A stretch of DNA of 64,000 bases from Bacillota bacterium (GTDB lineage Bacteria; Bacillota; UBA4882; UBA8346), in NCBI GenBank assembly GCA_023429995.1, contig JAEZCE010000046.1, positions 27,283 to 91,282 of the forward strand, given 5' to 3'. This document shows, one piece after another, positions 20,959-53,131 of this stretch. The position numbers and the translations under genes were made by a program. The notes beneath the pieces were generated by a model. The model searched no databases, had not been told where the DNA came from, and saw only the letters and a list, made by a program, of their open reading frames with translations. Each line of letters opens with the position of its first letter. Position 1 is the first letter of the stretch.

Positions 20959-21018
20959 TCCCTTCTTTTCTAAACATATTGATTCCGGCGAAGTATGATT
21001 AGGAAAGTATAAACACTT

Positions 21019-21651
21019 TCACTGCTCCGTTGAATTCATCCATTGATCAAACGGCAGGCAATTGATAATGATCAATAGGATGAAGTGGATTGCCATAAAA
21101 ACAATTAATTCATTCAAGCTTGGGACATGGCCGATAATGACCTGAATGTGAGGAATTGTGCCCACAGTTTTGGCATAGTCCAAGCGGTTGGTGACAAACC
21201 ACATCAGATCTAAAAATCCGGAAAAAATCAAAATCATACCGTTTAAGCCGGTTTTTAAGCATTTACCCGGAGAGCCGCCCCCCAAACGGTATGCCAAACA
21301 GATGGCCATAATGAATCCGGGATATAAAAAGTTGAATTCCAATGAATAATACGGATCCATTTTTCCCTGACAGGCCAGATAAGTCATTTTTGGAGAAAAA
21401 AAACCCAGATATATTATGAACGGAACCGTTAACAACAGATAACGGGATTTCATTTTATTGGGAAAAAGACTGACGGCTAACAAAAAAATGATGAATAGGA
21501 TGATTTGAATGACATATTGAATCAAGGTGGCTTTTTCCCGGTGGTGGGGAAAAGCCACCCAGCTTAAGAAAAAACCGACGGCGCCGATTGCCAGAAAAAA
21601 CAACCATAAATACTTTGAAAATCCATGTCCATGCTTTAATTGATCCATCAA
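21019..21651 (-). CDS. Integral membrane protein of unknown function (about 6 TM)
   Basis: Hydrophobic 210-aa ORF that starts 4 nt after the carbamoyltransferase stop. No recognisable family. Confidence 0.55.
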   Translation of the reverse strand: MMDQLKHGHGFSKYLWLFFLAIGAVGFFLSWVAFPHHREKATLIQYVIQIILFIIFLLAVSLFPNKMKSRYLLLTVPFIIYLGFFSPKMTYLACQGKMDPYYSLEFNFLYPGFIMAICLAYRLGGGSPGKCLKTGLNGMILIFSGFLDLMWFVTNRLDYAKTVGTIPHIQVIIGHVPSLNELIVFMAIHFILLIIINCLPFDQWMNSTEQ

Positions 21652-21654
21652 TCC

Positions 21655-25222: not shown

Positions 25223-25240
25223 TCGCCTCAGGGAGGGTCA

Positions 25241-26404
25241 ATGACAAAATTTAAATTATTAAGCATCTCGCTGCTCATTGGTTTATTACTGGGAGGTTGT
25301 TGGGACCGGAGAGAACTGAATGATATCGCGATTACAATGGGTGTGGGAGTAGATTATGATCCGGCGGTAAAAAACGTTCACCTTAGCATGCAAATCATTA
25401 AACCCGATCAAATGAAAGGGCCGGGAGGAGGAAACGGTGGCAAAGGAGGCGGCGGTGGCCAGCAAGCTTCATTTTTACTGGAAAGTCAGGGACGTACTGT
25501 ATTTGAGGCAATCCGACAGGCTAATTTTAAGTCGACCCATAAAATAAACTGGACTCATAGCATGGTGATTATTTTAGGAAAGAGCGCGGTTGATAACGGG
25601 GTGAGTCCTTTTTTAGACTTGTTTATCCGCGATCCGGAACCCCGCCCCACCCAATGGATTTTGGTGACTGAAACAGAGTCTAAGACGATTTTAGAGGCTA
25701 CTTCTCCACTGGAAAAAGTTTCGGCCATGAGCATTGACAACATAATAAAAAATACCGTGAATACCTCCAAGGCGGTAGCCGTTGATTTGCACTCGTTTAT
25801 CGAAAAATTAATCAGCAAAACAACCTCGGCCGTGGCCCCGATTATTAAAACCAGTTCCGAAGAACCCAAGGAGTTAATCTTGGACGGGACGGCTGTTTTT
25901 AAAAAAGATAAGATGGTCGGAAAGCTTAATCCCAGTGAAACACGGGGACTGTTGTGGGTAACCGGTCAAGTAAAAGGCGGCGTGATCTCATTTGAGGCCA
26001 AGAGAGAAGAACCGGTTACCTTAGAAATTATCCAAGCTTCCGGCTCATTTAAGCCTCAATTGAACAAAGGCCAACCGTTGATCCATCTTCGAATTAAGGT
26101 GGTATGCAATTTAGGAGAACAGGAAACAAAAGAAGATATGTCCGACCCGGAAAAACTAGATTATTTAGCCAAAAAAGCAGCAAAAGTAATCCAGGCCGAA
26201 ATAACGGCTACAGTTAAGAAAACGCAACAATTACGGGCTGACGTGTTCGGCTTTGGTCAGGCGATTTATGTAAAATATCCAAAACAATGGCAGCCGATGG
26301 AATCCCGGTGGGACGAGTTGTTTCCCCAAGTAAAGATGGACGTCAAAGTGGATATCGCCATTAAACAAGTGGGAGAAACCACAAAATCGTTGCGGTCCAT
26401 ATAA
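25241..26404 (+). CDS. Spore germinant receptor C subunit (Ger(x)C lipoprotein)
   Basis: Lipobox LLGGCWD followed by RRELNDIAI, typical of the GerAC family. Confidence 0.85.
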   Translation: MTKFKLLSISLLIGLLLGGCWDRRELNDIAITMGVGVDYDPAVKNVHLSMQIIKPDQMKGPGGGNGGKGGGGGQQASFLLESQGRTVFEAIRQANFKSTHKINWTHSMVIILGKSAVDNGVSPFLDLFIRDPEPRPTQWILVTETESKTILEATSPLEKVSAMSIDNIIKNTVNTSKAVAVDLHSFIEKLISKTTSAVAPIIKTSSEEPKELILDGTAVFKKDKMVGKLNPSETRGLLWVTGQVKGGVISFEAKREEPVTLEIIQASGSFKPQLNKGQPLIHLRIKVVCNLGEQETKEDMSDPEKLDYLAKKAAKVIQAEITATVKKTQQLRADVFGFGQAIYVKYPKQWQPMESRWDELFPQVKMDVKVDIAIKQVGETTKSLRSI

Positions 26405-26413
26405 GGAGGAACC

Positions 26414-27523
26414 GTGGGAAAGAGTGAACAACTTCAGCTTGAAAGAGGGAAAATCTCCGGCCCGGAATTGACCTTTTTATTAGCCGGGTTTCTGTTTGGC
26501 TCCTCCGTGCTGATTACGCCCGCTGGGGCCGGAGAACATCAGGCTTGGCTGGCAATTTTGCTGGGGATGGGAGAAGGGCTGGCCTTTGCCGCAATTTATC
26601 TTTTCGTGTTACGAAAATTCCCCGGTAAAACCCTGGTTGAGATTTGTGAGGCGGTTTTCGGCAAGCTTATTGGAAAAACCACAGCTATCATTTTTCTGAT
26701 GTACCTGTTTTATCTTGCGGCGACCGTTGTTACTAATTTTCACGATTTCATTAAAATGTCTATTTTAGTGAACACGCCTTCCTTTATTTTGGTTTTAGTC
26801 GGATTGGGGTATTGCAGTTATGGAGCAAAAAACGGAATTGAAGTGTTGGCTCGGGTGGCTCAGGGAATGGTGATTTTAACCATTGGCCTATTTTTGCTTA
26901 CGCTGGTTTTGATAATAACCAAAATCAAGTTCACCAATTTTTTGCCCCTGTTCGTAATACCGGCTTCCAAGATGCTTTGGGGAATTCATCAGGCAGCCAC
27001 GTTTCCTTTCGGGGAATCAGTCGCCTTTATGATGATTATTCCATTCCTCAACAAGCAGAAAGATGCTATGAAGTCGGTGTTTAAAGGTTTTATAATGGCT
27101 TGCCTCATTTTTTTGCTCATTGCGTTACGTATGACCGGGGTTTTAGGAGAAACGGCCAAGTTAGTCATATACCCTTCATACTATGTTACCCGCTTGATCA
27201 ATGTGGCGGATGTTTTTACACGCTTGGAAATCATTACTGCGACCAACTTTTTAGTGACGGGTTTCATTAAAATCGCCGTTTTGTTATATGCCACATCCTT
27301 AGGAGTCGCTCAGGTGTTTGAATTGAAGGATTATAAAATATTGGTATTGCCGTTTGGCCTTTTAGCCGGTTTGATCGGCATCACCAATTTTTCAAGTGTT
27401 ACGGAAAATATCAAATTCGCCAGTGAAGTTTATCCGCTTTTTGCGCTCCCGTTTCAAGTGGGTATCCCTTTATTCATATTGATCGTATCTATCATCCGAA
27501 AACTACCCAAAAAAGGAAAATGA
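26414..27523 (+). CDS. Spore germinant receptor B subunit (GerAB/APC-type permease)
   Basis: GTG start with AAGGAGG upstream. 10-TM permease with a GerAB-like N-terminus (ISGPELTFLLAGFLFGSSVL). Confidence 0.85.
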   Translation: MGKSEQLQLERGKISGPELTFLLAGFLFGSSVLITPAGAGEHQAWLAILLGMGEGLAFAAIYLFVLRKFPGKTLVEICEAVFGKLIGKTTAIIFLMYLFYLAATVVTNFHDFIKMSILVNTPSFILVLVGLGYCSYGAKNGIEVLARVAQGMVILTIGLFLLTLVLIITKIKFTNFLPLFVIPASKMLWGIHQAATFPFGESVAFMMIIPFLNKQKDAMKSVFKGFIMACLIFLLIALRMTGVLGETAKLVIYPSYYVTRLINVADVFTRLEIITATNFLVTGFIKIAVLLYATSLGVAQVFELKDYKILVLPFGLLAGLIGITNFSSVTENIKFASEVYPLFALPFQVGIPLFILIVSIIRKLPKKGK

Positions 27524-34027: not shown

Positions 34028-34948
34028 ATGATGAAAAAAACACTTCTAATGATTTTGGTTTTTGTCTTTGTTATGCCTTTTTGTTTTTCCCCGGTAATAT
34101 TTGGTGCATCAGAGTTAAATCACATTATTATATATGAGAGTATCAATTTCAAAGGTGGACATACGCATATCTTCGGCAGTGCTGCCACCCTCCCTGAACT
34201 GAATAACGAAGTATCATCTTTTATTGTTGTGTCTGGTAGATGGACTTTTTATAATGGTGTAAATTTCACCAATGAAATTGTTGGTGATTTTCCTAGTTTT
34301 GGTCCTGGACAATACACAGATGTTGCAAACTGGGGTATACCCAATGATTCGATCTCATCAGCAGCTTCCGAGGATTATTACGGAAATTCTATGAACAAAG
34401 CCAATCTGGGTGATCAGTTTGGTCATATTATTCTTTATGAGGATAGTGATTTTGGCGGAGCGCATTCTCATATCTTCGGTTCCGCATCACCTCTCCCTGA
34501 ATTGAATAATGAAGTATCTTCCTTCATTATTGAATCAGGTTGTTGGGTGTTGTATGATATTGAAGGTTACAATATACCACGTGGTGTTATTCTTGGACCT
34601 GGAAAATACTCAAATGTTGCCAATTATGACATACCTAATGATTGTATCTCAGCAGTATCTAATCGGCCGGATGATGCAGATGAAAATGCCGCGTTAAGAA
34701 GCCATATTATTCTATTTCAACATGAAAATTTTAAAGGAGCACACAATCATGTTTTTGGTGATGCTGCAACTCTCCCCGGAATGAACGATAAGGCAACTTC
34801 GTTCGTTATTCTAAAAGGCGGTTGGTATTTGTATAAAGATGCAAACTATATTAACCTACTTGGTAGTTTTAATGGCGGAAAATACTCAAATGTCGCCAAT
34901 TATAATATGCCTAATGATTCTATCTCATCATTAAGATCGCCAAATTAA
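34028..34948 (+). CDS. Secreted protein with three tandem beta-gamma-crystallin domains
   Basis: Signal peptide, then three units of about 95 aa. Each unit has two Greek-key signatures (hIIlYEx.nFkGxh..iFG and GxW.lY), and each carries LNNEVSSF and IPNDSISS type N/D-N/D-x-x-S-S calcium-binding motifs. GGAGGA lies 8 nt upstream of the start. Confidence 0.8.
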   Translation: MMKKTLLMILVFVFVMPFCFSPVIFGASELNHIIIYESINFKGGHTHIFGSAATLPELNNEVSSFIVVSGRWTFYNGVNFTNEIVGDFPSFGPGQYTDVANWGIPNDSISSAASEDYYGNSMNKANLGDQFGHIILYEDSDFGGAHSHIFGSASPLPELNNEVSSFIIESGCWVLYDIEGYNIPRGVILGPGKYSNVANYDIPNDCISAVSNRPDDADENAALRSHIILFQHENFKGAHNHVFGDAATLPGMNDKATSFVILKGGWYLYKDANYINLLGSFNGGKYSNVANYNMPNDSISSLRSPN

Positions 34949-36196: not shown

Positions 36197-37924
36197 TCAG
36201 ACTCTTGATAACTCGTCTCTAAATGCAGGCCTATTTGCATATTGGCTAAAAAGCTTCTGTTTAATCTCCAATGCCTGTTCTCTCCCGCCAGCCTTTCTGA
36301 GATTCCGGATTATGGCGCATACCCCCTGATAGCCCTTTCTGGTATTTGCCCGGGCCGCAGTCTGCTCAATATATTGCCGAAATAGCCCGTAAACCTCTTC
36401 CGTGAATTCAGGAATAAGATACTTGTAAAAATACTCCACCGCTGAAGGCCTTTCTTTGACGTATTCATATAGCTTTTGTTTTTCGCCTTCTTCGATCAAA
36501 ATAGAGGTGTAGACATGCCCTTGGGTTTGCTTTTGGTTTTTCAATCGCAGAATGATTTCAGGATAAACAGAAGGCCACTCTTTAGTGTCATAAGTGTTTT
36601 TCAGTTCGCTGTAATATTCAAAGTCTCCTTTTAAAATAAAATCCCTAGCAATTCCACGCTGCTCGTCTACATTTCCGGAAAGTTTATATGCTTTATACCG
36701 GTATCCCATCCATTGAGCGACTAATCCGGGGAAGCCTTGATCCTTCTCTTCCCCGGCGAGGGCGAGCGTAATAACTTGATTATAATCTTTTTTCTTCATT
36801 GCGCTTTCGATGGCCATTTTTCTAAAGTCAGAATATTGCAAGTTTTGTTCGATAAATTCCTCTGTCTTTTTCGCTCCGTCATATTTTTCAATCATATGAT
36901 ATCGGATGAGATTTATCTTCTCTACAAGGTACTTAATGTTCCATGAATCGCCTGGCTCTTTTTCTATCATTGAAACCAAATGATTCTCCAATTTATTTCG
37001 CAAATGCCGGTTATCCGCAAGTTCCGAACACTTGGCAAGCAAATCCAGTGTCCAATCGGTCCAGCCATCATAGCGTTTCTGAACCGCTTCCGTCATCAAC
37101 TGATCAAAAATATTTTCTTTCTGCGCCGGACTTAATTCTGGATCATCAATGATTTCAGCAATAAACGCAAAACTTTCGTCAATCATTCCACCAATGAATC
37201 CATCGGAATCATCGGCCCCTTCAAGTAAATCGATCATTTCCCGTGCGATACAAAGGGCCAACTTAACAGCATGGGTGGTTTTATTCTGTTTCAAAGCGTG
37301 ACGGGCCTTTTCCAAAACCATACCGGCGCCTTTGACGACTTCGGATGTGTTTCCATAGCTCACAAATCCCCATGGGTTGGAATTATTATCGATGTAAGTA
37401 TGGATAAGCGCAATCGACTTATTGATTTCATCCTCATCATTTCCAATATTAAAATCCAGTTCAATACGCCGCTTGATTTCTTCATACTCAGAGGCAATAT
37501 CCATCAGCAGTTCAACGAGCTCATCTTTGGTCCGGTCGGAAAGTATTTTCTTGATATCGATTTCTTTTATCTTTTTTTGAACTGGAAATTCAAGCGCTGC
37601 TCCTAAGTCCATACAAAGATTTTTGGACACCGGGCTTTTCTCATCGGATATATTGTTTTTCATTTCCTGTAACGTATAAAAAACCGCTATTTGATGCTTG
37701 CAACATTCTCCCAAGTCATAAGGACAATCACATTGGGTATCGATTATGTTCTCCGCATGATCAAGTTCAACTTTCACAGTATACAGATCAGTCCCTTCAA
37801 CTTTCGCCACAAATACATTTTCCTTACTTTCCTCCACTGAGGTTACATACTCATTCTCATAGTAGTCATAGCCCCTTGCCAATATTTTGGGGTCGATATA
37901 ATTCTCAAAATTGTTAAGGTTCAT
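36197..37924 (-). CDS. SWIM zinc-finger domain protein (575 aa) with a long helical C-terminal region
   Basis: N-terminal SWIM signature CDCPYDLGECCKH (CxC...CxH) after a beta-rich head. I recognised no further domain in the remainder. Confidence 0.75.
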   Translation of the reverse strand: MNLNNFENYIDPKILARGYDYYENEYVTSVEESKENVFVAKVEGTDLYTVKVELDHAENIIDTQCDCPYDLGECCKHQIAVFYTLQEMKNNISDEKSPVSKNLCMDLGAALEFPVQKKIKEIDIKKILSDRTKDELVELLMDIASEYEEIKRRIELDFNIGNDEDEINKSIALIHTYIDNNSNPWGFVSYGNTSEVVKGAGMVLEKARHALKQNKTTHAVKLALCIAREMIDLLEGADDSDGFIGGMIDESFAFIAEIIDDPELSPAQKENIFDQLMTEAVQKRYDGWTDWTLDLLAKCSELADNRHLRNKLENHLVSMIEKEPGDSWNIKYLVEKINLIRYHMIEKYDGAKKTEEFIEQNLQYSDFRKMAIESAMKKKDYNQVITLALAGEEKDQGFPGLVAQWMGYRYKAYKLSGNVDEQRGIARDFILKGDFEYYSELKNTYDTKEWPSVYPEIILRLKNQKQTQGHVYTSILIEEGEKQKLYEYVKERPSAVEYFYKYLIPEFTEEVYGLFRQYIEQTAARANTRKGYQGVCAIIRNLRKAGGREQALEIKQKLFSQYANRPAFRDELSRV

Positions 37925-42841: not shown

Positions 42842-43648
42842 CTAAAGTCCATACCCGCTTTCGACCAATTCCGTCAGCCTTGAAACAAACCGGGCAGCCG
42901 GAGCGCCATCCACAACATCATGGTCAATGAGGATGGTCATGTGGAGGTATTCCCGGATCGCGATTTGATCCTTAACCACACCCGGTTTCTTGACGATGGA
43001 CCCCAAAGCGAAACAAACCGGGAGAATGCTGACCGGGATGACCCACCCTCTGACATGGCCCATCATTCCGACGGAAGTTACCACAACCGTTCCGGACATC
43101 TTTTTCATTAAAAAAGGATTGGTTAAGATGAATCGTTTCCAAATCATAATTCGGATAAATTGCGGCAAGGCAACGTAAAATTTCATGGCCCACTTGTATT
43201 GATTTTCCCCCAGTACGTAATCCTGCTCATTTTTCACTTCTTGTTCTTTGGCTTGTTGAATTTCCCGCTGAATTTCGGGTGGGGTTTTTTGGTTCACTTT
43301 CCGGATCACCAGGGGGAGGGGAACTTTCTCTCCCCGGATTTCTTTTTCAATGATCACCGAGATATCAATATCGTCGAAAAGAATCAGTTTATTCTTGCCT
43401 TTTCGGATGGCGTGGACGGTTTTATGTTCATCAATCGCCTGACCGATACATTTTAGGATCCAAGCCGTAAAGGAAAGGTTTTCTTTCTTCTGGTTGCGGT
43501 ATTTTTTGATCCATTGCCGGGCCTCGGTCACATCCAGCTCAATAAGGGCCTTGATATGGTGTTTTCTCAGACCAAGGAAACCGGCGTCGAAGGTTCCTTG
43601 CCTGCTGGACGGGAATTCTTTCACTTCATATTGAATTTTTTCCCTCAC
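42842..43648 (-). CDS. Stand-alone 2-oxoacid-dehydrogenase E2-type (CAT-superfamily) acyltransferase catalytic domain
   Basis: C-terminal catalytic motif LIDHDVVDGAPAARF (DHxxxDG). AAGGAGGG lies 7 nt upstream of the GTG at 43648; the track TTG at 43666 is the alternative start. The gene starts 44 nt after the PKS stop. Confidence 0.7.
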   Translation of the reverse strand: MREKIQYEVKEFPSSRQGTFDAGFLGLRKHHIKALIELDVTEARQWIKKYRNQKKENLSFTAWILKCIGQAIDEHKTVHAIRKGKNKLILFDDIDISVIIEKEIRGEKVPLPLVIRKVNQKTPPEIQREIQQAKEQEVKNEQDYVLGENQYKWAMKFYVALPQFIRIMIWKRFILTNPFLMKKMSGTVVVTSVGMMGHVRGWVIPVSILPVCFALGSIVKKPGVVKDQIAIREYLHMTILIDHDVVDGAPAARFVSRLTELVESGYGL

Positions 43649-43691
43649 GGTTCTGCCCTCCTTCAAAGGCGGCTAAAAGCCTACGCTTAAC

Positions 43692-46600
43692 CTATAAATT
43701 GGCCGCGGCGATCTCGCTTTCACTCTTCCCAATTTCTGGCAGAGAAAGCAACCGGTCGCGATGGGCTTCGAGAAAGTATCCGGTTAAATCTTTAAGGGTT
43801 GGGTATTCATAAAACAAGGTTTGCGACAGGGCGCCAAAGATTTTCTCCAGTCTCATGTTGAGTTCCAGCATCATGACGGAGTCGATCCCGTATTCCTCGA
43901 AGGGAGCATCCGCCGGGATCCGCCCCGCCGGGAGATTGATGGCCTTTGCAATCAGATTTTTCAGGTAGTTCTGCGTTTTTTCCCGGAGCGCCTCTTCTCC
44001 AACGCCCGCTTGATCTTCCATTTTCACAGCGGCCGGCCCGTTTTCAGCGGCTGTTGGTCCTGGGGTCAACCTTTGCCTGAGCCGTTCCAACCGGCCCTCC
44101 AACACCATCAGCCTACTTTTTCCGGAGGAAAATCCCTTATATAAAGCCTGGATGCCTGCGGAACTTTCCATCGCCACCATTCCGGTTTTTTCCATCATCA
44201 TTTTCGCGGTTTCCGCTTCCATGCGCATTCCGCCATTCTTCCACAACGGCCAGTTCACCGAGAGCGTCCATCCCTGACGCTGTCCGCACTCAACCAACCG
44301 GTTCCGGTATTCGGCATAAGCATCCATAAAAGCATTGGCCATCGAATAATCAGCCTGTCCCGCATTACCCAAAGATCCCGCGATCGAGGAAAAAAGAATC
44401 ACCCAGTCAAGCTGGAAATCCCGGCTCGCCTGATCAATATTTACCAGCCCCGCCACTTTGGGGGCCAATACCTCTCTAGCTTCGGCCCGGCTCTTTTTAA
44501 GGATGTAATTGTCCTTGATTACGCCGGCGCTATGGATGATCCCGTCGAGTCCTCCAAACTCCTCCCGGATACTCCGGATTAACCCGTTAACAGCTTCCCT
44601 GTTGCTAACGTCGACCGACTTGTACACTACTTTGGCGCCCGGAGCTTCCAATTTTTGAATCTCCTTTTGCATCGCGGCAGACAGCGGGGAGCGTCCGGTC
44701 AGGATTAAGTTGACATTTTTGGCTTGGGCCGCTATCTCACGGGCAAATATCATTCCCAAACCTCCGGCGCCACCCGTGATCAGATAAATGCCGCGTTCTT
44801 TCCAAGGCATGATCCCTTTTTCGTGAGATTTCCCCATTTCATTCCATTCCAAAACATAGCGCCGTCCCTGGCTATAACGGATTTGACCATCATCAGGGAT
44901 GCAGCTGTTTTCCCGCAATGTCTCAACGATTTTTTCCGCCTCTTCGATTGCGATCACCTGACCCACGAATTGCGGATTTTCAATCCCGGCGGTCTTCAAA
45001 AGCCCGGCTAACCCCTGGAATATTTCTCCTTCTCCTTCGCCCCAGCGGGGCACTACGATTTGGGCCAGTACTTTTCCAGGCTGGCTGTGGGATAGCACTC
45101 TTTGTATTTCCTCCAATGCCTGACAGGCATAACTCTGGAAGCGCTTTTCGAGCTCCGGCCCCTCGGACTGGAAATGAATGCAGCGGACCTCGGGCATTTC
45201 CCCGGCAATCCTGTTCCCGGCCCCCACAGGCATTTCGCAAAGTATCACCAGGTGCCGGCCATAATTGATTTCCGTAGGAAGAAGATGATTTCGTTCCCGC
45301 CATACCGGCTCAAGCATCAGTGTCCCCAGGGCCTCCGCCAAATCCCCTTTTTCTTCCGCTACCTTAAAGGAAACTCCTTTCATTCTTACCCGAATCATTC
45401 CTTGATCATCACAAAGATCGATGTCGATTGATTGTTTCTTTTCCTCGATTGGCCGGTCTTCCCGGAGCCGGAGATACGCCCACATGGAAGAAGTTGATTT
45501 ATCAATAATTTCCAACTCCTCCATCGCAAAAGGCAAGGCCAATTTGGGATTATCAAGGCCCTTAAATCCGATGAACGCCTGTAAGGCTGAATCCATTATG
45601 CTGGGGTGCAGGAAATACTGGTCCTTGGTAGCGGCCAGGAATTCAGGCAAGGATAACCGCGCCAGAATTTGTCTCTTACCGATATATAGCTCTTTTATCC
45701 CTTGATGCCCCGGTCCGTAAAGGATTCCCGCCTTCTTAAAAGCTTCATACACTTCAGTCGGGAAAAGAACGGTTTGGTTGCACCCGGCCTTCAGCGATGC
45801 AAGATCCAAAGTTGGCCCGATGGTCTTCTCACCTAGCTCGGCACGGCCCCGGCTATCCACGGATGGATCATTGGGGGAATTCTCGCTTTCAGAGGATACT
45901 TCATAAACTATCTCGCCGTTGCTCTCCGGGAACAATCCGATGTTCACCCGGACCGGTTGCGCCCCTACGCGAATGAAGCGGGTCCAAACGATGTTTTTAA
46001 GCCGGATAGTCGTCCTGCTTTCTTCCACGCCGCCGACTGCTTGTATCACTGCGGCTCTGGCCATCTCCAAATAAGCGACCCCCGGTAATATCCGTTCTTC
46101 CTTCACCCGGTGATCCGCCAGGAAAAACTCCCGGCCGTTAAAAATGGAACGAAACCGCAAACCGGACAAGTTGGAGGTGTTTTGCTGTAACAAAGGATGA
46201 ATGAAAGTCAAGGCATTCGTGGGAATGGCCTCTTGAGTCGAACTTCCATTTTCCGGCAGCCAATATCGCTCCCCGGCAAAGGAATAGGCCGGTAAATGGA
46301 TGCGCTGAGGTTTTCTTTCCCCATACAGCAAGTTCCAGTCCACCGCTCCCCCTTGGCTCCAGTACTCCGCCACCTTACCCAGACCCGGCTCTCCTTGGGC
46401 AAGCCACTTGCAAATCCGTTCCCGGGCATCTTCCCCGCTCTCAGAAGACTGCGGATTTTGTTGCTTCCTATACCCTTGCCAGCAATTGCCGATGGGTTCC
46501 TTCCCCTGCTCAAAATCGGCCATTTTCTGAAGCAATTCCGGAATTCCGTTGATCACAAAGACTATCCGCTCTTCCATTGCGGCCCGGCCTGTTTGAAGCG

Positions 46601-49600
46601 TATAAGCCGCATTGAATAAATCAACTTCCGACCGGCGGAGAAACGCCTGCAATTTTTGGACGGAAGACCGTAAACATTGCTTCGTTTTGGCTGAAAGAGG
46701 AATAATTACCGGTTCCTCTTTCGCTGCAACCCCTGAAACTGAAGGATCCGTAACGGAGGGAATATACTCTTCCACAACTACATGGGCATTTACACCGCCA
46801 AGTCCGAAAGAACTAATCCCGGCCCGATTGGGAATGTCCCTTCCCCCGGAGTCTTGACGCCTATTCCATTCTTGGGTTTTTTCAACAATGTAAAAAGGGC
46901 TGTCTTTCAAATGGATATAGGGATTGAGCTGATTAAAATGAATAATTCCCGGCAGCGTCCGATGTTTCATGGACATCAGCACTTTAATCACACCGGCGAT
47001 TCCCGAAGCCGATTCGCAATGCCCGATATTGGTTTTGGCAGTCCCCAGCCCACATAGGGAATGGGGACTCCTGGGGTTGATTTCCTGAAACGCTTCCTGC
47101 AAAGCTTGAATTTCAATGGGATCGCCAAGAGATGTCCCGGTTCCATGGGTTTCAATATAGCTGACCGTTTCAGCGGCACTATTCAGGTCTTCGTAGGCCG
47201 ACTTGATCAATTCCCTTTGGGCGTTCATATTGGGCGCCCGCAGTGAATTGGATTGCCCATCATGATTAACGACGGCCTTTTTAATCATTCCGTAAATCGG
47301 ATCCCCATCTTTGACTGCCTGTCCATAGGGTTTAAGAAGAAGGGCCCCATAACCTTCCGAGCGCACAATCCCGTCGGCTGATTGGTCAAAAGTTTTACAG
47401 CGGCCGTCTTCCGATAACATTCCGCCGCGATAGCAGGCGCGATGGACTCTAGAGGTCAAGATGATATTAATGCCTGCCGCAATAGCCAGATTGCATTCCC
47501 CTTGTTGAATGGACCGTACCCCATGATGAACCGCCACCAGCGAACTGGAGCAAGCCGTATTCACAATCTCACTGGGACCGTGGAAATCAAACCAACGGGA
47601 TACCCGATTGGCGATCATACCCAAATGGATCCCGGAATCCAAATAGGCGCCGTAGGTTTTCATCAATTCCGGCCGCCTGATCACTAAATCCGCATAGTCG
47701 TTATTATGGACGCCGACAAATAAAGCGATTTTTTCCCCGGCCATTTGCAAAGGATTGTACCCGCCGTCTTCAATCACACTCCAGGTGAGTTCCAAAAGCT
47801 TCCGTTGTTGGGGATCCATACTTTCCGCTTCCAAGGGTGAAATATTGAAAAAAGCGGCGTCAAATTGGTCAACCCCGCCGATAAAGCCTCCCCATTCCGG
47901 GAAACGTTCACCCGTTTCCCCGTAATAACGTTGGTCCTCCGCTAAGATTTCGGGCCGGCTTTGGGAAAAAGATGTGATACAATCTTTTTGAGCCGATAGT
48001 ATTTCCCAAAAACTCTCCGGATCGACAGCCCCTCCTGGAAAATGACAACTCACACCGATAATCGCGATATCTTCGTTCCGGCTCTTGCCGGAAAAATCCA
48101 AGGGGTCCGTTCCGGTTAACCTCGAAGCCATACATGGAACCGGGGTCCCCGCGATTTGGCCCCGAATATAGCCGGCTAAATTTTCAAAGCTACGGTGTTT
48201 AAAGAACAACACCGGTGGAAATTGGATCTGGAAAACTTCCTCGATCTTCCGGGCAATCCGGACATATTGGATGGAGTCCAATCCCAATTCGCTCAAGGAT
48301 GAAGCTTCGGTAGTTTTAGGGGAGTCGCTTTTGAGAACCGGCAGGAAAACCGCTTGCTTTAAAGTTTGGATGATCTCTTGATCGAACAGCCCGGGAGATT
48401 CTTCCCCGGGGGGCGGGGATACAACATCCCCTTGCCGGTATTGATGAACTACCGGTAATGTCTGATTCAAAAAAGCATTGCGGCAGGCCTTCCTCTGAAT
48501 CTTGCCGCTTCCGGTTCGGGGAATGCTTCCTTGGGCCACCAATTGAATGGTATACAGTTCCAGTCCATGATTTTCAGATACCGCGGCAATAATCGACTGA
48601 ATGAAACTTTTTAACTGCCGCCCGGTATGGGAGGCTTCGACTTCCTGAACCACCACCACTTTTTCTTGTTCTTCAATATCGCAAGAAAAGACCGAAACCG
48701 GTAAAGAAAGACCGGGGACATATTTTTTGATGGTCCATTCGATGTCCACCGGATGATGATTTTTGCCGTGAATAATCATCACTTCCTTCTCCCGGCCAAC
48801 GATATAAAGATGGTTATCTTCGGTAAATCCCAGATCTCCGGTGCGAAAGAATCCCCTTTCTTTTGTTGAGCTTAAGGTTCCTGCAAACGAGTCTTTAGTT
48901 TCCTGTTTCCGGTTTAAATAACCAACTGCAACGGAGGGAGATTTTACCCAGATTTCACCGATTTCCCCCGCCGGGCACGGTTGACAATTATCGGGATTTA
49001 CGATCACCAGTTGCGTGGGCTCATGGATCTCTCCACAACTGGTTACCGGTTTACTCTTTTTATCCTGGTTCTTCAATTTCACTTTTCGCAGTTCGAGGCT
49101 GGGAATATCGAGGGATAGAAAACGCATGGGAGCCCCCGGTCTCAACGTTGTCAGCGAGCCGGTTTCCGACATTCCGTAATGCGGACAAAACACGTTATCT
49201 CCCAGGCCCAACGTTTTAAATTTACTTTGAAAGTTTTCATACGTTTCTTTGCGAACGGGTTCTCCGCCGCAAATAATTCCTTGAAGCGAGCGCAGGGATA
49301 AATTTGGGACAGCTTCTGGATTTATTGAGGAGCAACAATAATCAAAGGCAAAATTGGGAGCTCCGGTGTGAGTGGCCTGATGCCTGCCGATCGTCATCAG
49401 CCAATCTTCCGGCTTTCCGATAAAAGAGCCGGGCGACATGATCACGCTGCAAGCCCCGCTAATGAGGGGAGTCAATATATTCAAAAAAAGTCCGAAATTA
49501 TGAAACTGCGGCATCCATGAAACAATACGGCTATCCTCGCTTATTCCCCATTGAATGGCGCCAATGGCAGCCTGAGACCTTACATTGCCGTGACTGAGCA

Positions 49601-50153
49601 TTACCCCTTTGGGCTGGGATGTGGAGCCCGAAGTATATAGCAGTAAAGCAATATCATCCGGATTTCCGGTTCTAGCTTTTGCGTCTTTACAATTTCCGGA
49701 GGATAACTCCTGAATATTGCATAGGGGAACCGAGCCGAATAGGTTTTTGGATTCAAGGTAGGCTTTAAAGTGAGAGTCCGTCAAAATGCAAGCCGCGTTT
49801 GAATCTTTAAGTATCGGACCAACCTTTTCCGGAATAAGCTCCTGCTGCTCCGGGTCGGTGATCGGAGTCGGGATGGCAATCACATTCGCATCGAAACAGG
49901 CCAATAATCCGCAAATATAATCCAGCCCTTGAGGGAAGATAAGAATTACTTTCTCCCCGGGATCCAGTTTGCGTTGGAAAAATTGGCTGATGACTTTGGC
50001 TTTATCGGCTAAGTCCTTTCCCGTCAAGAAATCTTTCTCGTCGTTTTCTCGATGGAAAGTAAATAATTTCTTTCCTGAAAAGCGTTGACATTGATCCATA
50101 AACCATAATGGGACCCGTTCCGAGGAATTTTCCGCTCCGGGTATATTTTTCAT
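43692..50153 (-). CDS. Hybrid loading/extension trans-AT polyketide synthase: FAAL-ACP-KS-(AT-docking linker)-DH-KR-ACP, 2153 aa
   Basis: Domain motifs are listed in the sub-features below. AAGGAGGAG precedes the ATG. There is no AT, ER or TE domain. Confidence 0.92.
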   Translation of the reverse strand: MKNIPGAENSSERVPLWFMDQCQRFSGKKLFTFHRENDEKDFLTGKDLADKAKVISQFFQRKLDPGEKVILIFPQGLDYICGLLACFDANVIAIPTPITDPEQQELIPEKVGPILKDSNAACILTDSHFKAYLESKNLFGSVPLCNIQELSSGNCKDAKARTGNPDDIALLLYTSGSTSQPKGVMLSHGNVRSQAAIGAIQWGISEDSRIVSWMPQFHNFGLFLNILTPLISGACSVIMSPGSFIGKPEDWLMTIGRHQATHTGAPNFAFDYCCSSINPEAVPNLSLRSLQGIICGGEPVRKETYENFQSKFKTLGLGDNVFCPHYGMSETGSLTTLRPGAPMRFLSLDIPSLELRKVKLKNQDKKSKPVTSCGEIHEPTQLVIVNPDNCQPCPAGEIGEIWVKSPSVAVGYLNRKQETKDSFAGTLSSTKERGFFRTGDLGFTEDNHLYIVGREKEVMIIHGKNHHPVDIEWTIKKYVPGLSLPVSVFSCDIEEQEKVVVVQEVEASHTGRQLKSFIQSIIAAVSENHGLELYTIQLVAQGSIPRTGSGKIQRKACRNAFLNQTLPVVHQYRQGDVVSPPPGEESPGLFDQEIIQTLKQAVFLPVLKSDSPKTTEASSLSELGLDSIQYVRIARKIEEVFQIQFPPVLFFKHRSFENLAGYIRGQIAGTPVPCMASRLTGTDPLDFSGKSRNEDIAIIGVSCHFPGGAVDPESFWEILSAQKDCITSFSQSRPEILAEDQRYYGETGERFPEWGGFIGGVDQFDAAFFNISPLEAESMDPQQRKLLELTWSVIEDGGYNPLQMAGEKIALFVGVHNNDYADLVIRRPELMKTYGAYLDSGIHLGMIANRVSRWFDFHGPSEIVNTACSSSLVAVHHGVRSIQQGECNLAIAAGINIILTSRVHRACYRGGMLSEDGRCKTFDQSADGIVRSEGYGALLLKPYGQAVKDGDPIYGMIKKAVVNHDGQSNSLRAPNMNAQRELIKSAYEDLNSAAETVSYIETHGTGTSLGDPIEIQALQEAFQEINPRSPHSLCGLGTAKTNIGHCESASGIAGVIKVLMSMKHRTLPGIIHFNQLNPYIHLKDSPFYIVEKTQEWNRRQDSGGRDIPNRAGISSFGLGGVNAHVVVEEYIPSVTDPSVSGVAAKEEPVIIPLSAKTKQCLRSSVQKLQAFLRRSEVDLFNAAYTLQTGRAAMEERIVFVINGIPELLQKMADFEQGKEPIGNCWQGYRKQQNPQSSESGEDARERICKWLAQGEPGLGKVAEYWSQGGAVDWNLLYGERKPQRIHLPAYSFAGERYWLPENGSSTQEAIPTNALTFIHPLLQQNTSNLSGLRFRSIFNGREFFLADHRVKEERILPGVAYLEMARAAVIQAVGGVEESRTTIRLKNIVWTRFIRVGAQPVRVNIGLFPESNGEIVYEVSSESENSPNDPSVDSRGRAELGEKTIGPTLDLASLKAGCNQTVLFPTEVYEAFKKAGILYGPGHQGIKELYIGKRQILARLSLPEFLAATKDQYFLHPSIMDSALQAFIGFKGLDNPKLALPFAMEELEIIDKSTSSMWAYLRLREDRPIEEKKQSIDIDLCDDQGMIRVRMKGVSFKVAEEKGDLAEALGTLMLEPVWRERNHLLPTEINYGRHLVILCEMPVGAGNRIAGEMPEVRCIHFQSEGPELEKRFQSYACQALEEIQRVLSHSQPGKVLAQIVVPRWGEGEGEIFQGLAGLLKTAGIENPQFVGQVIAIEEAEKIVETLRENSCIPDDGQIRYSQGRRYVLEWNEMGKSHEKGIMPWKERGIYLITGGAGGLGMIFAREIAAQAKNVNLILTGRSPLSAAMQKEIQKLEAPGAKVVYKSVDVSNREAVNGLIRSIREEFGGLDGIIHSAGVIKDNYILKKSRAEAREVLAPKVAGLVNIDQASRDFQLDWVILFSSIAGSLGNAGQADYSMANAFMDAYAEYRNRLVECGQRQGWTLSVNWPLWKNGGMRMEAETAKMMMEKTGMVAMESSAGIQALYKGFSSGKSRLMVLEGRLERLRQRLTPGPTAAENGPAAVKMEDQAGVGEEALREKTQNYLKNLIAKAINLPAGRIPADAPFEEYGIDSVMMLELNMRLEKIFGALSQTLFYEYPTLKDLTGYFLEAHRDRLLSLPEIGKSESEIAAANL
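43749..43976 (-). other. PKS domain: carrier protein 2 (Ser about 2092, codon 43878-43880)
   Basis: FEEYGIDSVMMLELNMRLEK motif. The protein ends about 60 aa later with no thioesterase. Confidence 0.8.
44229..44792 (-). other. PKS domain: ketoreductase catalytic subdomain
   Basis: GIYLITGGAGGLG (Gly 1788), GIIHSAGV and SSIAGSLGNAGQADYSMANAF motifs. Confidence 0.85.
45354..46211 (-). other. PKS domain: dehydratase (double hot-dog)
   Basis: HPLLQQN...LADHRVKEERILPGVAYLEM (HxxxGxxxxP-type motif, His about 1348) and HPSIMDSALQ. It is preceded by a trans-AT-type post-KS linker (PLSAKT..., AYTLQTGRAAMEER, LPAYSFAGERYW). Confidence 0.8.
46764..48071 (-). other. PKS domain: ketosynthase (Cys 868, codon 47550-47552)
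   Basis: DIAIIGVSCHFPG, VNTACSSSLVAVH, ETHGTGTSLGDP and NIGHCESASG give the complete C-H-H triad. Confidence 0.9.
48144..48371 (-). other. PKS domain: carrier protein 1 (Ser about 627, codon 48273-48275)
   Basis: LSELGLDSIQYVRIARKIEE phosphopantetheine-attachment motif. Confidence 0.8.
48399..50153 (-). other. PKS domain: acyl-AMP ligase (FAAL/FadD-type adenylation), approximately aa 1-585
   Basis: LLYTSGSTSQPKGVMLSHGN, APNFAFDYC, YGMSETG, FFRTGDLGF and GKIQRKACR motifs. Boundaries are approximate. Confidence 0.8.
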
Positions 50154-50170
50154 CCATTCTCCTCCTTAAG

Positions 50171-50194
50171 GCATAAGGTTACCTGAAACCTTAT
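50171..50194 (-). other. 9-bp hairpin immediately 5' of the PKS ribosome-binding site
   Basis: CATAAGGTT (50171-50179) pairs with AACCTTATG (50186-50194) across a 6-nt loop. No U-run follows on the minus strand. Confidence 0.4.
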
Positions 50195-50234
50195 GATCAA
50201 TCAGTTTACGCCAACTCTTGGTTTTTTCCTTCTT

Positions 50235-51194
50235 TCATGTCTCTTTAACGAGGTCCAGAATGACTTTTAAATTTTTCAGTTCTTGATCAAAGGGTGTGAT
50301 CATCGCGCCAAACCGGGAGGAAGAATCCGTCCGAAGATTATATTTGACAAAAGTGGCCAAGGTTCCCGAGGGTCCAAGATCCAAATAGAGGTAACTCCCT
50401 TTCTTTTCCAACTCCTGAATCGTTTGTTGAAACCGAATCGGGTTTCGAACAACCTTCCAGAAATAATCCCCAGAAATCTCAGGGATCTCGGTTCCCATTA
50501 AACAAGAGATGTAAGGTATCCTGGGTCTTTGAAGCGATATGGTTTTTAAACAATCCCTGCAGATTGGGGCGGCCGGATCAATGCGCGCCGAATGAAAACC
50601 GAAAGAGACGGGCAACCGTAAAGAAATAATTCCCTTACTTTTTAAAATGGCGGCAATTTCGGCTATTTTTTCATTTTTCCCGGAAATGACGAAATGGGAA
50701 TGGAAATTGATCGAGGCGATCTCGGTCTCTTCAAATAATTGAGGATGGTCATCATAAAGAGCGGGATTAGCGATTATCGTCAGCATGCTGCTATTTTGGC
50801 AAAGATCTTCCAACGTTTCCGCCTGTTTTAAGAGGCATTCGATACTCTCTTCAAGTCCCATAACCCCGGAAAGGGCGGCGGCTGTGAATTCTCCCAAACT
50901 GGCGCCCAGAACATAATCGGGCTTCACGCCGCTTTCCAACAAAACTTGGGCCAGGGAATATTCCAGCATAAAAATAGCCGGACTGGTAAACAAAGTCCGA
51001 AGAAACGGTTCTTCTTTCCGCTGCTTCGGATTATAAATTTCACCGATAATGGATACAGCGATTTTTCGCCTAACCATATCATCGATGGTAATCATCCAAT
51101 GGCGAAACGTGGAATTCTGATGAAACAATTCCGTTCCCATGTGGTAATACTGGGAGCCCTGCCCGGAAAACATGAATATGATTGGTTTACCCAT
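50235..51194 (-). CDS. Discrete acyltransferase (FabD-like malonyl-CoA:ACP transacylase; trans-AT)
   Basis: FMFSGQGSQYYHMG, active-site GASLGEF (GxSxG) and VSFGFHS (xxFHS specificity region). Confidence 0.85.
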   Translation of the reverse strand: MGKPIIFMFSGQGSQYYHMGTELFHQNSTFRHWMITIDDMVRRKIAVSIIGEIYNPKQRKEEPFLRTLFTSPAIFMLEYSLAQVLLESGVKPDYVLGASLGEFTAAALSGVMGLEESIECLLKQAETLEDLCQNSSMLTIIANPALYDDHPQLFEETEIASINFHSHFVISGKNEKIAEIAAILKSKGIISLRLPVSFGFHSARIDPAAPICRDCLKTISLQRPRIPYISCLMGTEIPEISGDYFWKVVRNPIRFQQTIQELEKKGSYLYLDLGPSGTLATFVKYNLRTDSSSRFGAMITPFDQELKNLKVILDLVKET

Positions 51195-51206
51195 TAGAAG
51201 TATCCT

Positions 51207-51287
51207 TTACGGCCCTTCATGAATGACATCGATTCTATCCAAAAACAACTGCATGAGTTCTCTTTTGTTGCTGGGGTCAAAAATCAT
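51207..51287 (-). CDS. Candidate 26-aa micro-ORF (MIFDPSNKRELMQLFLDRIDVIHEGP)
   Basis: Not in the ORF track because it is under 60 aa. Its ATG overlaps the chorismate-lyase TGA (ATGA), with AAGGAGGGGAG upstream. Its TAA lies 12 nt before the trans-AT ATG, so it fills the intergenic gap exactly. Confidence 0.3.
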   Translation of the reverse strand: MIFDPSNKRELMQLFLDRIDVIHEGP

Positions 51288-51826
51288 TCACTCCCCTCCT
51301 TAAAAAAGGTCGCGGGAAATTTTTCGGTAATTGCCCCGAATGCGATCTTGTTCTGATAGATTAAATAGGTTCTTGATAATATCGGGGTCTGAGGCTGTAT
51401 ATCAAAGTAAGGTACCAATGATTGAGCGGACTCGACTTTGTAATCAATCACTTCCCGATAAGTTTCGAGTTTTTCCTCCCTCCACATCAGTCCAACCGGC
51501 TGATCGGTTTCCAGAAGCTTATATTGAACAGAACGGGAAAGCAATTGAAACACAAAAATAGATTCACAATAAACATAATTTCGGTTTTTACCACATAGTA
51601 AAATGTCCCTTTTCAACACCGGAGTTTCCAGGGAGCATAGTAACTCTTCCGATTTTCCGCTAAGCGCTATTTCCTGCCGAATTTTTTTAACTTTGATCAT
51701 TTCACCGGTGTAAAGTTTCAAAAGATTCGTGACCGTCCCATCCGTGGTCAAAAGAATTTTTTGAAATAAACTTAAGGAGTTATCGCCAATGATCGTTTCG
51801 ACCATTAAATTTTCTTGTAAGGACAA
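51284..51826 (-). CDS. Chorismate-lyase-like (UbiC/Chor_lyase/UTRA-fold) protein
   Basis: ILLTTDGTVTNLLKLYTGEMIKVKK matches the LL.tDGs.T..Le....e.i.v.v signature of chorismate pyruvate-lyases. TTG start with GGAGG upstream; the alternative ATG is at 51805. Confidence 0.6.
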   Translation of the reverse strand: MSLQENLMVETIIGDNSLSLFQKILLTTDGTVTNLLKLYTGEMIKVKKIRQEIALSGKSEELLCSLETPVLKRDILLCGKNRNYVYCESIFVFQLLSRSVQYKLLETDQPVGLMWREEKLETYREVIDYKVESAQSLVPYFDIQPQTPILSRTYLIYQNKIAFGAITEKFPATFFKEGSE

Positions 51827-51886
51827 AATAGTGAGCCTCCATATTTTTAATAAAACATATGCCGGTTGCGTCTGCTTTCCAGGAGG

Positions 51887-52690
51887 TTACTTTTCAGCTA
51901 ATCCTAACAACCTTTTGGCATTATCACACAAGATTTTTTGCTTCTCCATTTCCAAAATAGGTAAGGCCTTTAAATGTTGGATTTCGGTTTTCCCATTACT
52001 CCACGGCGCATCGGTGGCAAATAACACTTTATCCGCGCCGTGGTTTTTGACGATTCTTAAAAATTGTTCTTGTTTGTAGTGCTCAAAGCCCATTGAGGTA
52101 TCAAGATAGATATTTTTGCCCACCAGATACTTTTCAACATCATCCCACTGGTCATATCCGCCCAAATGGGCGGCAATGATAATACCGCCCTTCATGGCAT
52201 CAACGATTCTTGCAAATTGCCCGGGACTGCTTTTGTAAGGCTTCGGCATGCCGGGGTCGGCCCCGGCGTGATATAAAATCATCAGGCCTTTGCTTAAAGC
52301 ATAGTCGTATATTTTCAGCATTTTAGGATCATCAATGGTGAAGTTTTGATATTCCGCGTGAAATTTAAGGCCTTTCAGACCCAAGCCGGCCACGAAATCG
52401 ATATCCCTTTTGTAATCGTCCGTATGGGGATAAATGCCGCCGAAGGATATGATGCGATCCGAACAAATACTTCTAGCCCACTCATTGGTTTTTCGCGTTT
52501 GGGATTGTTTGGTAACAACCGGCTGGATAACGGAAATATCAATGTTCCATGCATCCATGTTCTTTAGCAGGCTGGAAATAGTCCCATTGTGGACCGGAGT
52601 ATAGATATAGTCAATATTTGCCGTAATGGTCGCCAGCGCTTTCTCTGCCAAATCATCCGGAAAAGCATGCGTATGAAAATCAATAACCAT
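51887..52690 (-). CDS. Metal-dependent amidohydrolase-2 family (TIM-barrel hydrolase/decarboxylase) protein
   Basis: MVIDFHTHAFPD N-terminal HxH motif, plus later H and D ligands (AAHLGG, FATDAPW). Confidence 0.75.
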   Translation of the reverse strand: MVIDFHTHAFPDDLAEKALATITANIDYIYTPVHNGTISSLLKNMDAWNIDISVIQPVVTKQSQTRKTNEWARSICSDRIISFGGIYPHTDDYKRDIDFVAGLGLKGLKFHAEYQNFTIDDPKMLKIYDYALSKGLMILYHAGADPGMPKPYKSSPGQFARIVDAMKGGIIIAAHLGGYDQWDDVEKYLVGKNIYLDTSMGFEHYKQEQFLRIVKNHGADKVLFATDAPWSNGKTEIQHLKALPILEMEKQKILCDNAKRLLGLAEK

Positions 52691-53058
52691 TGGTTATGCC
52701 TCGTTTTCTTTGCCCCAGGATCCTAGTAGAGCGTATCGTAAATAAATGGTAATCAGAAATGGGAAGACACGCTCTACTTAAGTAAAACGTACACCATCAT
52801 TGAGTAGTTATTTAGCGAACGTTTTACTATATAGGTTGAAATAAATTTTGTTATATCAGAGAGCATCGCTAAAAAGTGAATGCCGACTTGACCTAACCCG
52901 CGCGTCCCATTGGATGCGACCCTTCCCCTTGTGTAGCTCAAATAGCTGATCCCTAGATGTTTCCTATTCACGAGTTTGCAACCGATATCACGAATTACCA
53001 AAAAATATTTTGCAAAGCGCATCTTGCACTCTGTGCCTGCAGCACCAACAGGTGCTGA

Positions 53059-53131
53059 CGCCTCTGCGCGAAAACAAATAGGCGGCTTAAGTCGAACCAA
53101 GCTGATTTATTTTTATAACCATGTTATCTTA
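53059..53131. repeat. Copy 2 of the dispersed element of about 70 nt (first copy at 33291-33360)
   Basis: See 33291-33360. Here the element overlaps the last two codons and the stop of the DinB-family gene. Confidence 0.6.

Follow-up and report, generated by a model that had tools for sequence, protein, structure and literature searches.

We propose that a compact gene cassette from a Bacillota bacterium builds a 4-hydroxycinnamoyl unit from chorismate with a single polyketide synthase (PKS) module. The cassette lies on a 64,000-nucleotide stretch of contig JAEZCE010000046.1 (GenBank assembly GCA_023429995.1, positions 27,283 to 91,282), referred to here as the window. It consists of a predicted chorismate pyruvate-lyase, a PksD-type proofreading acyl hydrolase (AH), and one type I PKS without an acyltransferase (AT) domain, or of four genes if a micro-open reading frame (micro-ORF) is real, and we assign this reading a probability of about 0.6. 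As judged from its sequence, it is a homologue of the section that starts elansolid-type trans-AT assembly lines, and it ends after module 1. What sets it apart is this one-module stop; the logic of lyase-primed initiation is itself already known.

In the proposed route, the lyase would convert chorismate into 4-hydroxybenzoate (4-HBA) and pyruvate. The adenylation domain of the PKS, which is of the fatty acyl-AMP ligase (FAAL) type, would then adenylate 4-HBA and load it onto the first acyl carrier protein (ACP1), with no coenzyme A (CoA) ester being formed. An unlinked AT, most simply the FabD of fatty acid synthesis, would place malonyl on the second carrier (ACP2), and the ketosynthase (KS) would condense the two units once. 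A B-type ketoreductase (KR) and a dehydratase (DH) would complete a single pass that yields (E)-4-hydroxycinnamoyl-S-ACP2 (p-coumaroyl-S-ACP2). Judging from the domain content, this thioester is the most likely product. The AH would clear mis-primed acetyl-ACP left by malonyl decarboxylation and may also be the sole hydrolytic exit, and the product would leave as p-coumaric acid or pass to another acceptor.

The synthase and its acyl hydrolase

A preliminary description of the window had listed six minus-strand ORFs between 42842 and 52690, and all six are found there (Table 1). Their families were assigned with Pfam and NCBIfam, and catalytic residues were read from the translations. The largest ORF encodes the PKS, with the domain order FAAL-ACP-KS-DH-KR-ACP that the same description had given, and by reading of the translation, the catalytic motifs of the KS, the DH, the KR, and both ACPs are all intact. 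A truncated KS-AT linker is present in the protein, which has no PF00698 match; such a linker without an integrated AT is of the trans-AT type. The protein stops 27 residues past ACP2, where a gene for a protein resembling the E2 component of 2-oxoacid dehydrogenases (the E2-like gene) comes next, and a search of the 64-kb window for a second KS found none. Among NCBIfam models, the adenylation domain matches fatty-acid--AMP ligase PRK05850 at 3e-103 versus 1e-45 for long-chain acyl-CoA ligase PRK06187, with all scores under the whole-protein cutoffs. Its best PDB matches, at 325 to 334 bits, are 7R7F ("Polyketide synthase") and 3KXW ("Saframycin Mx1 synthetase B").

The gene directly upstream of the PKS had been described as a discrete FabD-like acyltransferase, an assignment that comparison with structurally characterized relatives overturns. 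The protein aligns with Bacillus subtilis PksD (PDB 8AVZ) over its full length to residue 312, with an E-value of 2.9e-98, 332 bits, and approximately 58% identity, whereas the true ATs PksC and PksE reach only 69 and 59 bits. In place of the GHSL motif it has G-A-Ser99-L, together with His201 and Gln12, and Gln124 occupies the position of FabD Arg117. In an alignment that included E. coli FabD and AT-fold proteins from related clusters, it fell in the group that carries G-(A/S)-S-L and Gln or Thr at the Arg117 position. A missing malonyl-binding Arg is diagnostic of the proofreading AHs of trans-AT PKSs, which also feature a G(A/S/V)SL motif and a C-terminal extension (PMC11775670). The window protein has Arg117 replaced, reads GASL, keeps the Ser-His dyad, and bears the C-terminal extension; by these residues, it is a proofreading AH and not a malonyl-CoA:ACP transacylase.

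The PksD of the bacillaene system (8AVZ) shares Ser99, His201, Gln12, Gln124, and the C-terminal extension with the window AH. However, PksD acts beside the true ATs PksC and PksE, while the window AH is the sole AT-fold protein of its cluster. Neither another AT-fold gene nor a discrete malonyl-specific AT, marked by GHSxG plus an equivalent of Arg117, was detected in the 64-kb window. Because the only AT-fold gene there is an AH, malonyl must come from an unlinked AT, for which FabD is the simplest candidate.

The predicted chorismate pyruvate-lyase

The predicted source of the starter is an Rv2949c-like protein that matches PF01947 at 3.5e-19 (69.7 bits, gathering cutoff 22) and the NCBIfam cyanobacterial chorismate lyase model at 6.9e-12, the latter under the model cutoff. 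Its Arg73 and Glu168 are invariant in 20 diverse homologues. In an hhalign comparison with a weak E-value (5e-4), these two residues stand opposite Arg76 and Glu155 of E. coli UbiC, which we take to be product-binding and catalytic residues. An AlphaFold2 model of the lyase has a pLDDT of 91.5. Foldseek searches with that model return an archaeal DUF98 structure, 2NWI, first (template modeling [TM] score, 0.79 to 0.89), and UTRA effector domains and UbiC score alike against it (TM, 0.55 to 0.63). In such model comparisons, the fold alone does not separate a lyase from a UTRA regulator domain, and the family assignment therefore draws on sequence and context. No helix-turn-helix or other DNA-binding domain was found by Pfam in the 180-aa protein, which is a stand-alone domain, and this argues against a GntR/UTRA regulator. 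The gene belongs to the Rv2949c/UbiC lineage, much as the preliminary description had suspected, and its product is the predicted supplier of 4-HBA.

The micro-ORF lies between the lyase and AH genes, and its coding status is uncertain. Two of the nearest relatives, the metagenome-assembled genomes (MAGs) L002 and L004, keep it, differing by a 3-nt indel that preserves the frame and by substitutions that are mostly conservative; in a third, L003, it is frameshifted. We also considered that it might be a deletion scar of the B12-binding genes that occupy the same position in L156 and L069, but by eye it has no similarity to their N-termini.

A widespread initiation signature

A profile of aligned lyase homologues was scanned against one genome per species (66 loci) and against JGI metagenomes (77 loci), and loci from Bacillus cereus and Desulfosporosinus nitroreducens were added through protein look-ups. 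In 21 distinct loci from several phyla, a FAAL-ACP-KS gene comes after the lyase gene, at a distance of a few hundred to a few thousand bases. The hosts of these loci are Bacillota, Clostridiaceae, Cyclobacteriaceae, Flavivirga, Aquimarina, Chitinophaga, Chryseobacterium, Janthinobacterium, and Gammaproteobacteria, and their FAALs are 43 to 58% identical to the FAAL of the window. The lyase stands directly before FAAL-ACP-KS-DH-KR-ACP in a Bacillota genome (L005), Cyclobacteriaceae (L006), Gammaproteobacteria (L008 and L043), Flavivirga (L014), Aquimarina (L015), Clostridiaceae (L016), Janthinobacterium (L017 and L071), Chitinophaga sp. YR627 (L034), Chryseobacterium (L035), and B. cereus (L068). 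Moreover, the window KS is 53 to 71% identical to the first KS (KS1) of lyase-linked PKSs in other phyla, and in a neighbor-joining tree of the lyases, members of the window clade that have enough flanking sequence are mostly PKS-linked, the exceptions being L012 and a gammaproteobacterial subclade. An Rv2949c-like lyase directly before FAAL-ACP-KS is a widespread initiation signature. Because the pairing recurs in 21 loci, a hydroxybenzoate starter is the best reading, and the loading step proposed earlier is retained.

Novelty is another matter. The preliminary description had put the locus forward as a candidate undescribed pathway; instead, the same cassette starts multimodular trans-AT PKSs, including that of YR627, and orphan versions exist in B. 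cereus, Desulfosporosinus, and Clostridiaceae. Where contigs are long enough, the lyase-linked relatives run into further modules. For instance, the B. cereus PKS (3138 aa) reads FAAL-ACP-KS-DH-KR-ACP-KS-DH..., with KS2 at aa 2197, and the Chitinophaga PKS (2727 aa) ends in ...-ACP-KS and is followed by another PKS gene. Upstream of the Chitinophaga lyase in L034 lie genes for a NusG-like protein, an AT-enoyl reductase (AT-ER), an AH, a free KS, and a P450, a set of accessory genes that fits a trans-AT cluster. Strain YR627 carries a complete elansolid biosynthetic gene cluster (BGC) of approximately 80 kb (PMC9248904), and elansolid A3 is a p-quinone methide (PMC12843350). From strain and gene content, L034 would be that BGC.

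A sister cluster type was also encountered. In L156 (8389-18293), a metagenome contig, and in D. nitroreducens L069 (10001-16940), the lyase gene is separated from the FAAL-PKS gene by one for a B12-binding protein of 650 to 663 aa. Upstream in L156 are genes for a carbamoyltransferase and an AT-ER, and the L156 PKS reads FAAL-ACP-KS-KR-ACP-KS, with the KS last.

Lyase homologues occur away from PKSs as well. In Steroidobacteraceae they occur singly, and many stand alone in proteobacterial genomes (e.g., L074). In Endozoicomonas sp. SM1973 (L075, 2726-11634), a homologue sits among a PabAB-like fusion, a thioesterase (TE), a TauD dioxygenase, and a nonribosomal peptide synthetase (NRPS) fragment, which suggests an aminobenzoate or hydroxybenzoate peptide cluster. 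The closest non-PKS homologues, at 56 to 58% identity, come from a gammaproteobacterial group (L076, 8001-15413), where the lyase gene is followed by a phosphopantetheinyl transferase (PPTase) gene and then by 2-oxoglutarate dehydrogenase E1, E2, and E3 genes. Such surroundings fit a general role in 4-HBA formation.

The outer genes

The six genes are co-oriented, with intergenic gaps of 43 to 88 nt and no terminator-like sites between them on the coding strand. The preliminary description accordingly counted the two outermost genes, for an amidohydrolase-2 enzyme and an E2- or chloramphenicol acetyltransferase (CAT)-type acyltransferase, among the pathway genes. If the six-gene operon were the pathway, the amidohydrolase might tailor or decarboxylate the aromatic acid, and the E2-type enzyme might off-load the chain to CoA, a thiol, an amine, or an alcohol. 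Beyond the tight gene layout, several features favor this idea: the arrangement is kept in L001-L004, the E2-like protein retains its HxxxDG site, E2 enzymes naturally move acyl groups between pantetheine- and lipoyl-type thiols, and a cluster without a TE needs some release enzyme.

Nevertheless, we consider a six-gene pathway unlikely, given how the two families are distributed. The E2-like protein has 2196 homologues, and the best 120 of the 2196 listed are 56 to 93% identical to it and approximately 267 aa long; the amidohydrolase has 1842 at an E-value of ≤1e-10, and the best 120 of the 1842 listed are 67 to 98% identical. Both families are thus much wider in membership than the lyase and PKS families and show stronger conservation; outside the close MAGs, the nearest relatives are 64 to 77% identical for the lyase and up to 58 to 71% for the PKS domains. 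In Clostridium formicaceticum and Hydrogenispora ethanolica, the E2-like homologues lie among unrelated genes with no PKS nearby. At other lyase-PKS loci, the genome and metagenome scans found no E2-like gene, and close copies of the amidohydrolase adjoin the lyase only in L001-L004, with one weak 22% match in L013. The shared gene order of L001-L004 holds among close relatives only, and L002 even has an extra 367-aa gene beside the E2-like gene, between it and a GNAT gene. Because the two families are large and conserved, because E2-like homologues occur in non-PKS contexts, and because neither gene accompanies other lyase-PKS loci, both outer genes are, on this comparative evidence, probably flanking neighbors and not pathway genes. 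The E2-like gene is probably cotranscribed with the PKS.

The two proteins themselves offer few clues. Pfam detects only PF00198 in the E2-like protein and no lipoyl or peripheral-subunit-binding domain, and the protein scores far under all cutoffs of the NCBIfam E2 equivalog models. Its gene has its own strong ribosome-binding site, GAAGGAGG, before GTG 43648, which is most likely the true start, giving 268 aa. The nearest PDB entries to the amidohydrolase are the uncharacterized structural-genomics structures 3CJP and 3IRS, along with a faint match to 2,3-dihydroxybenzoate decarboxylase, and no NCBIfam match was found for it. As an observation in its own right, stand-alone E2 proteins of approximately 267 aa without lipoyl or E3-binding domains make up a very large, highly conserved family in Bacillota and other bacteria, which sources label generically, only as E2 components.

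One further version would make the cassette a self-sufficient route from chorismate to p-coumaroyl that borrows FabD and uses the E2-type acyltransferase to off-load the chain to CoA or another acceptor. We hold this to be highly improbable; if true, E2-type off-loading would be a new release chemistry for PKSs and a function for the very large orphan E2-like family.

A synthase that ends after one module

The synthase ends after module 1 only in the window, in L001 (a Logan contig near-identical to the window), and in L002-L004, which are three uncultured Bacillota MAGs and the nearest genomes. The ending is therefore present in four lineages, counting the window and the three MAGs. The PKS orthologues of L002 and L004 are intact, with 2150 and 2149 codons, and share the end point of the 2153-codon ORF of the window. 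The B. cereus PKS has a module 1 of the same architecture, whose domains fall at almost the same residue numbers; that PKS continues into KS2, whereas the window protein stops at aa 2153. A scan of metagenomes gave more lyase-FAAL pairs and no further one-module version, nor any co-occurrence with the amidohydrolase or E2-like gene. Pairwise ratios of nonsynonymous to synonymous substitution rates (dN/dS) between the window and L002-L004 are 0.25 for the PKS, 0.18 to 0.21 for the AH, and 0.15 to 0.21 for the lyase, compared with mostly 0.08 to 0.14 for flanking genes. The cassette is maintained by purifying selection, somewhat less tightly than its neighbors. Such looser purifying selection is usual for secondary metabolism.

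A module that lacks an enoyl reductase (ER) and has no module downstream might act iteratively, giving an aryl-polyene-like 4-hydroxyphenyl polyenoyl chain, and the preliminary description had left iteration and a single pass side by side. There are type I PKSs in which a single module, placed after a FAAL or an aryl loader, works iteratively, Pks15/1 and micacocidin being examples. However, all multimodular relatives use the same module once and pass the chain to KS2, and no chain-length or release factor is present. Trans-AT KSs reportedly discriminate between incoming chains by their alpha/beta state, so a starter-type KS is not expected to reaccept its own enoyl product. Single use is favored on two grounds, namely the one-time action of the orthologous module in every multimodular relative and the selectivity of such KSs, and iteration appears improbable. 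The part of the earlier proposal that stands is the single-pass hydroxycinnamoyl thioester; the analogy to aryl polyenes is weak, as the discrete type II KS/chain-length factor, ACP, KR, and DH proteins of those systems are replaced here by domains fused in one type I protein.

Could the cassette instead be a decaying remnant of a larger trans-AT line that has lost its downstream modules, AT, and TE and makes nothing useful? All other relatives are multimodular, genes for an AT, a TE, and a PPTase are missing from the window, and the micro-ORF is frameshifted in L003. A remnant is nonetheless not what the open reading frames look like: those of the L002 and L004 PKSs are intact and end where the window PKS ends, the catalytic motifs are all in place, and the dN/dS pattern, at 0.25 across the whole PKS and 0.15 to 0.21 for the lyase and the AH, argues against a dead gene set. 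We therefore give decay a small chance. Very improbable indeed is the suggestion that the FAAL loads an ordinary fatty acid while the lyase is adjacent by chance or serves another use of 4-HBA, such as quinone synthesis, because the adjacency recurs in 21 distinct loci of several phyla, one of them in a strain reported to carry an elansolid BGC whose A3 member is a p-quinone methide, even though the best matches of the adenylation domain include FAAL-family models and structures of fatty-acid FAALs and many lyase homologues are solitary in proteobacterial genomes.

Points that weigh against the proposed route

Several observations count against a single-pass hydroxycinnamoyl route and should be set beside the evidence for it. 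First, no TE, malonyl-AT, or PPTase gene was found in the 64-kb window, so a complete pathway depends on unlinked genes. Release could occur by slow hydrolysis, either through the AH or spontaneously, through an unlinked TE, by E2-like transfer, or by hand-over to another enzyme. Coumaroyl release by the AH is doubtful because PksD-type AHs favor short acyl groups (PMC11775670).

Second, the choice of an aryl acid has a fatty acid competitor. The PDB matches next in line for the FAAL are the fatty-acid FAALs FadD23, FadD32, and FadD28, and an aryl acid, in the manner of FadD22, is predicted from gene context. Third, PKS-linked lyases are not monophyletic in the neighbor-joining tree. Finally, L034 was connected to the elansolid BGC through strain and gene content. 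Elansolid is reportedly primed by chorismate-derived 4-HBA.

Relation to known systems and implications

The closest parallel is the initiation of elansolid synthesis (Chitinophaga sancti, C. pinensis, and YR627; MIBiG BGC0000178). There too, as seen in L034, the lyase lies directly upstream of FAAL-ACP-KS-DH-KR-ACP and the AH is of the PksD type, and L034 is identical to the window at 48% (lyase), 46% (FAAL), 56% (KS), and 43% (KR) of positions. The elansolid line differs in extending over approximately 80 kb with many modules, an AT-ER, a beta-branching KS, and a P450, whereas the window holds module 1 only, with no malonyl-AT found in it. The same starter cassette opens the orphan PKSs of Firmicutes, namely those of B. 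cereus (GCA_002562165.1, L068), a Clostridiaceae MAG (L016), and D. nitroreducens (L069). In B. cereus, an AH homologue with 40% identity to the window AH lies upstream. These PKSs differ from that of the window in continuing into a further KS where the contig shows it; in Desulfosporosinus, the contig breaks off within the first PKS gene. A literature search for a characterized product of the orphan lyase-primed PKSs of Firmicutes found none.

Mycobacterial phenolic glycolipid synthesis follows a related plan, and its lyase, Rv2949c, is in the same Pfam family, PF01947, as that of the window. In both systems, a FAAL-type adenylation domain with a fused carrier (FadD22 in mycobacteria) supplies an aryl starter, which is elongated by a type I PKS with reducing domains. 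In mycobacteria, FadD22 is a protein separate from Pks15/1, which contains both an AT and an ER and makes saturated chains by iteration. In the window, by contrast, loader and PKS are fused in one protein, and the synthase is AT-less and ER-less. Albicidin offers a further comparison. In Xanthomonas albilineans, chorismate-derived 4-HBA from a UbiC-like synthase is reportedly activated by an acyl-ligase domain and carried on an ACP of AlbI through one AT-less extension to the N-terminal methyl-coumaroyl unit. Unlike the window module, that of albicidin includes a C-methyltransferase, is served by its own trans-AT, and passes its product to an NRPS line.

If functional, the cassette would be about the smallest trans-AT system found here, with one module, no dedicated AT, and no TE. 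It would then offer a tractable model for the choice of aryl starters by FAAL loaders, for the recruitment of FabD by AT-less modules, and for chain release without a TE, and it would represent a PKS route to hydroxycinnamate in a Firmicute that is independent of tyrosine ammonia-lyase. For genome mining, the lyase plus FAAL-ACP-KS signature points to orphan trans-AT PKSs among Bacteroidota, Proteobacteria, and Bacillota. Calling such a cluster complete should wait until its AT-fold genes have been sorted into ATs and AHs.

Locus and neighborhood

Table 1. Genes and PKS domains of the locus and one further gene of the window (window coordinates; residue numbers refer to the respective protein)
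Feature	Coordinates	Strand	Basis and residues
E2 (2-oxoacid dehydrogenase) catalytic-domain acyltransferase, stand-alone	42842-43666	-	PF00198 5e-22; DHDVVDG motif
AT-less type I PKS, 2153 aa, FAAL-ACP-KS-(KS/AT linker remnant)-DH-KR-ACP	43692-50153	-	Pfam, NCBIfam
Terminal carrier ACP2, aa 2063-2126	43776-43967	-	PP-binding; GIDS motif; Ser2092
KR, aa 1788-1972, B-type (Asp1881)	44238-44792	-	PF08659 8e-53; Lys1899, Ser1923, Tyr1936
DH, aa 1319-1604	45342-46199	-	PF21089 + PF14765; His1348...Pro1357, Asp1521xxxGln1525
RhiE/CurL-type KS-AT linker remnant, aa 1077-1220, no AT	46494-46925	-	PF22336 and PF22621 at aa 1150-1220
KS, aa 694-1073	46935-48074	-	Pfam, motifs; Cys868, His1003, His1045
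Loading carrier ACP1, ~aa 594-665	48159-48374	-	PP-binding; LGLDS motif; Ser627
FAAL-type adenylation domain, aa 20-571	48441-50096	-	PF00501 (aa 20-413); PF23024 C-terminal subdomain
PksD-type AH, 319 aa	50235-51194	-	Acyl_transf_1 1.7e-32; PDB 8AVZ match
Micro-ORF, 26 codons	51207-51287	-	MIFDPSNKRELMQLFLDRIDVIHEGP; ATG overlaps the lyase stop as ATGA
Rv2949c-like chorismate pyruvate-lyase family protein, 180 aa	51284-51826	-	PF01947; TTG start
Amidohydrolase-2, TIM-barrel metal hydrolase, 267 aa	51887-52690	-	PF04909 7e-18
GerA-family spore germination receptor gene	23639-25222	+	Two more ORFs after it, to 27523

The genes flanking the operon are housekeeping or sugar-utilization genes. One flank carries gltX, a gene for an XRE-type regulator, and a small GNAT gene; the other carries genes for a DinB-like protein, a tautomerase, a GNAT protein, GH3 and GH31 enzymes, and an ABC sugar transporter. 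No Rfam element was found upstream of the operon and no riboswitch or terminator inside or upstream of it. A signal of horizontal transfer was not detected either, as the GC content of the cassette genes, overall and at third codon positions, is within the range of the neighboring genes. Upstream of the amidohydrolase, a gap of approximately 430 bp (52691-53123) holds only a 108-codon ORF without a family match; at this place in L002, a 135-aa ORF abuts the amidohydrolase gene.

The preliminary description had also called the organism a spore former, and the GerA germination gene bears this out. Together with the ORFs after it, it probably forms a gerABC-type operon (23639-27523, plus strand). 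Elsewhere in the window, the stretch 17911-23376 on the minus strand encodes a carbamoyltransferase, a 210-aa ORF without a Pfam match, two family-2 glycosyltransferases, and a Polysacc_synt-type flippase, which make up a small glycan-modification cluster. Two further proteins are unusual for the neighborhood: one with three beta/gamma-crystallin repeats and an I36 inhibitor-like segment (34028-34948, plus strand), and a SWIM zinc-finger/DUF6880 protein (36197-37924, minus strand).

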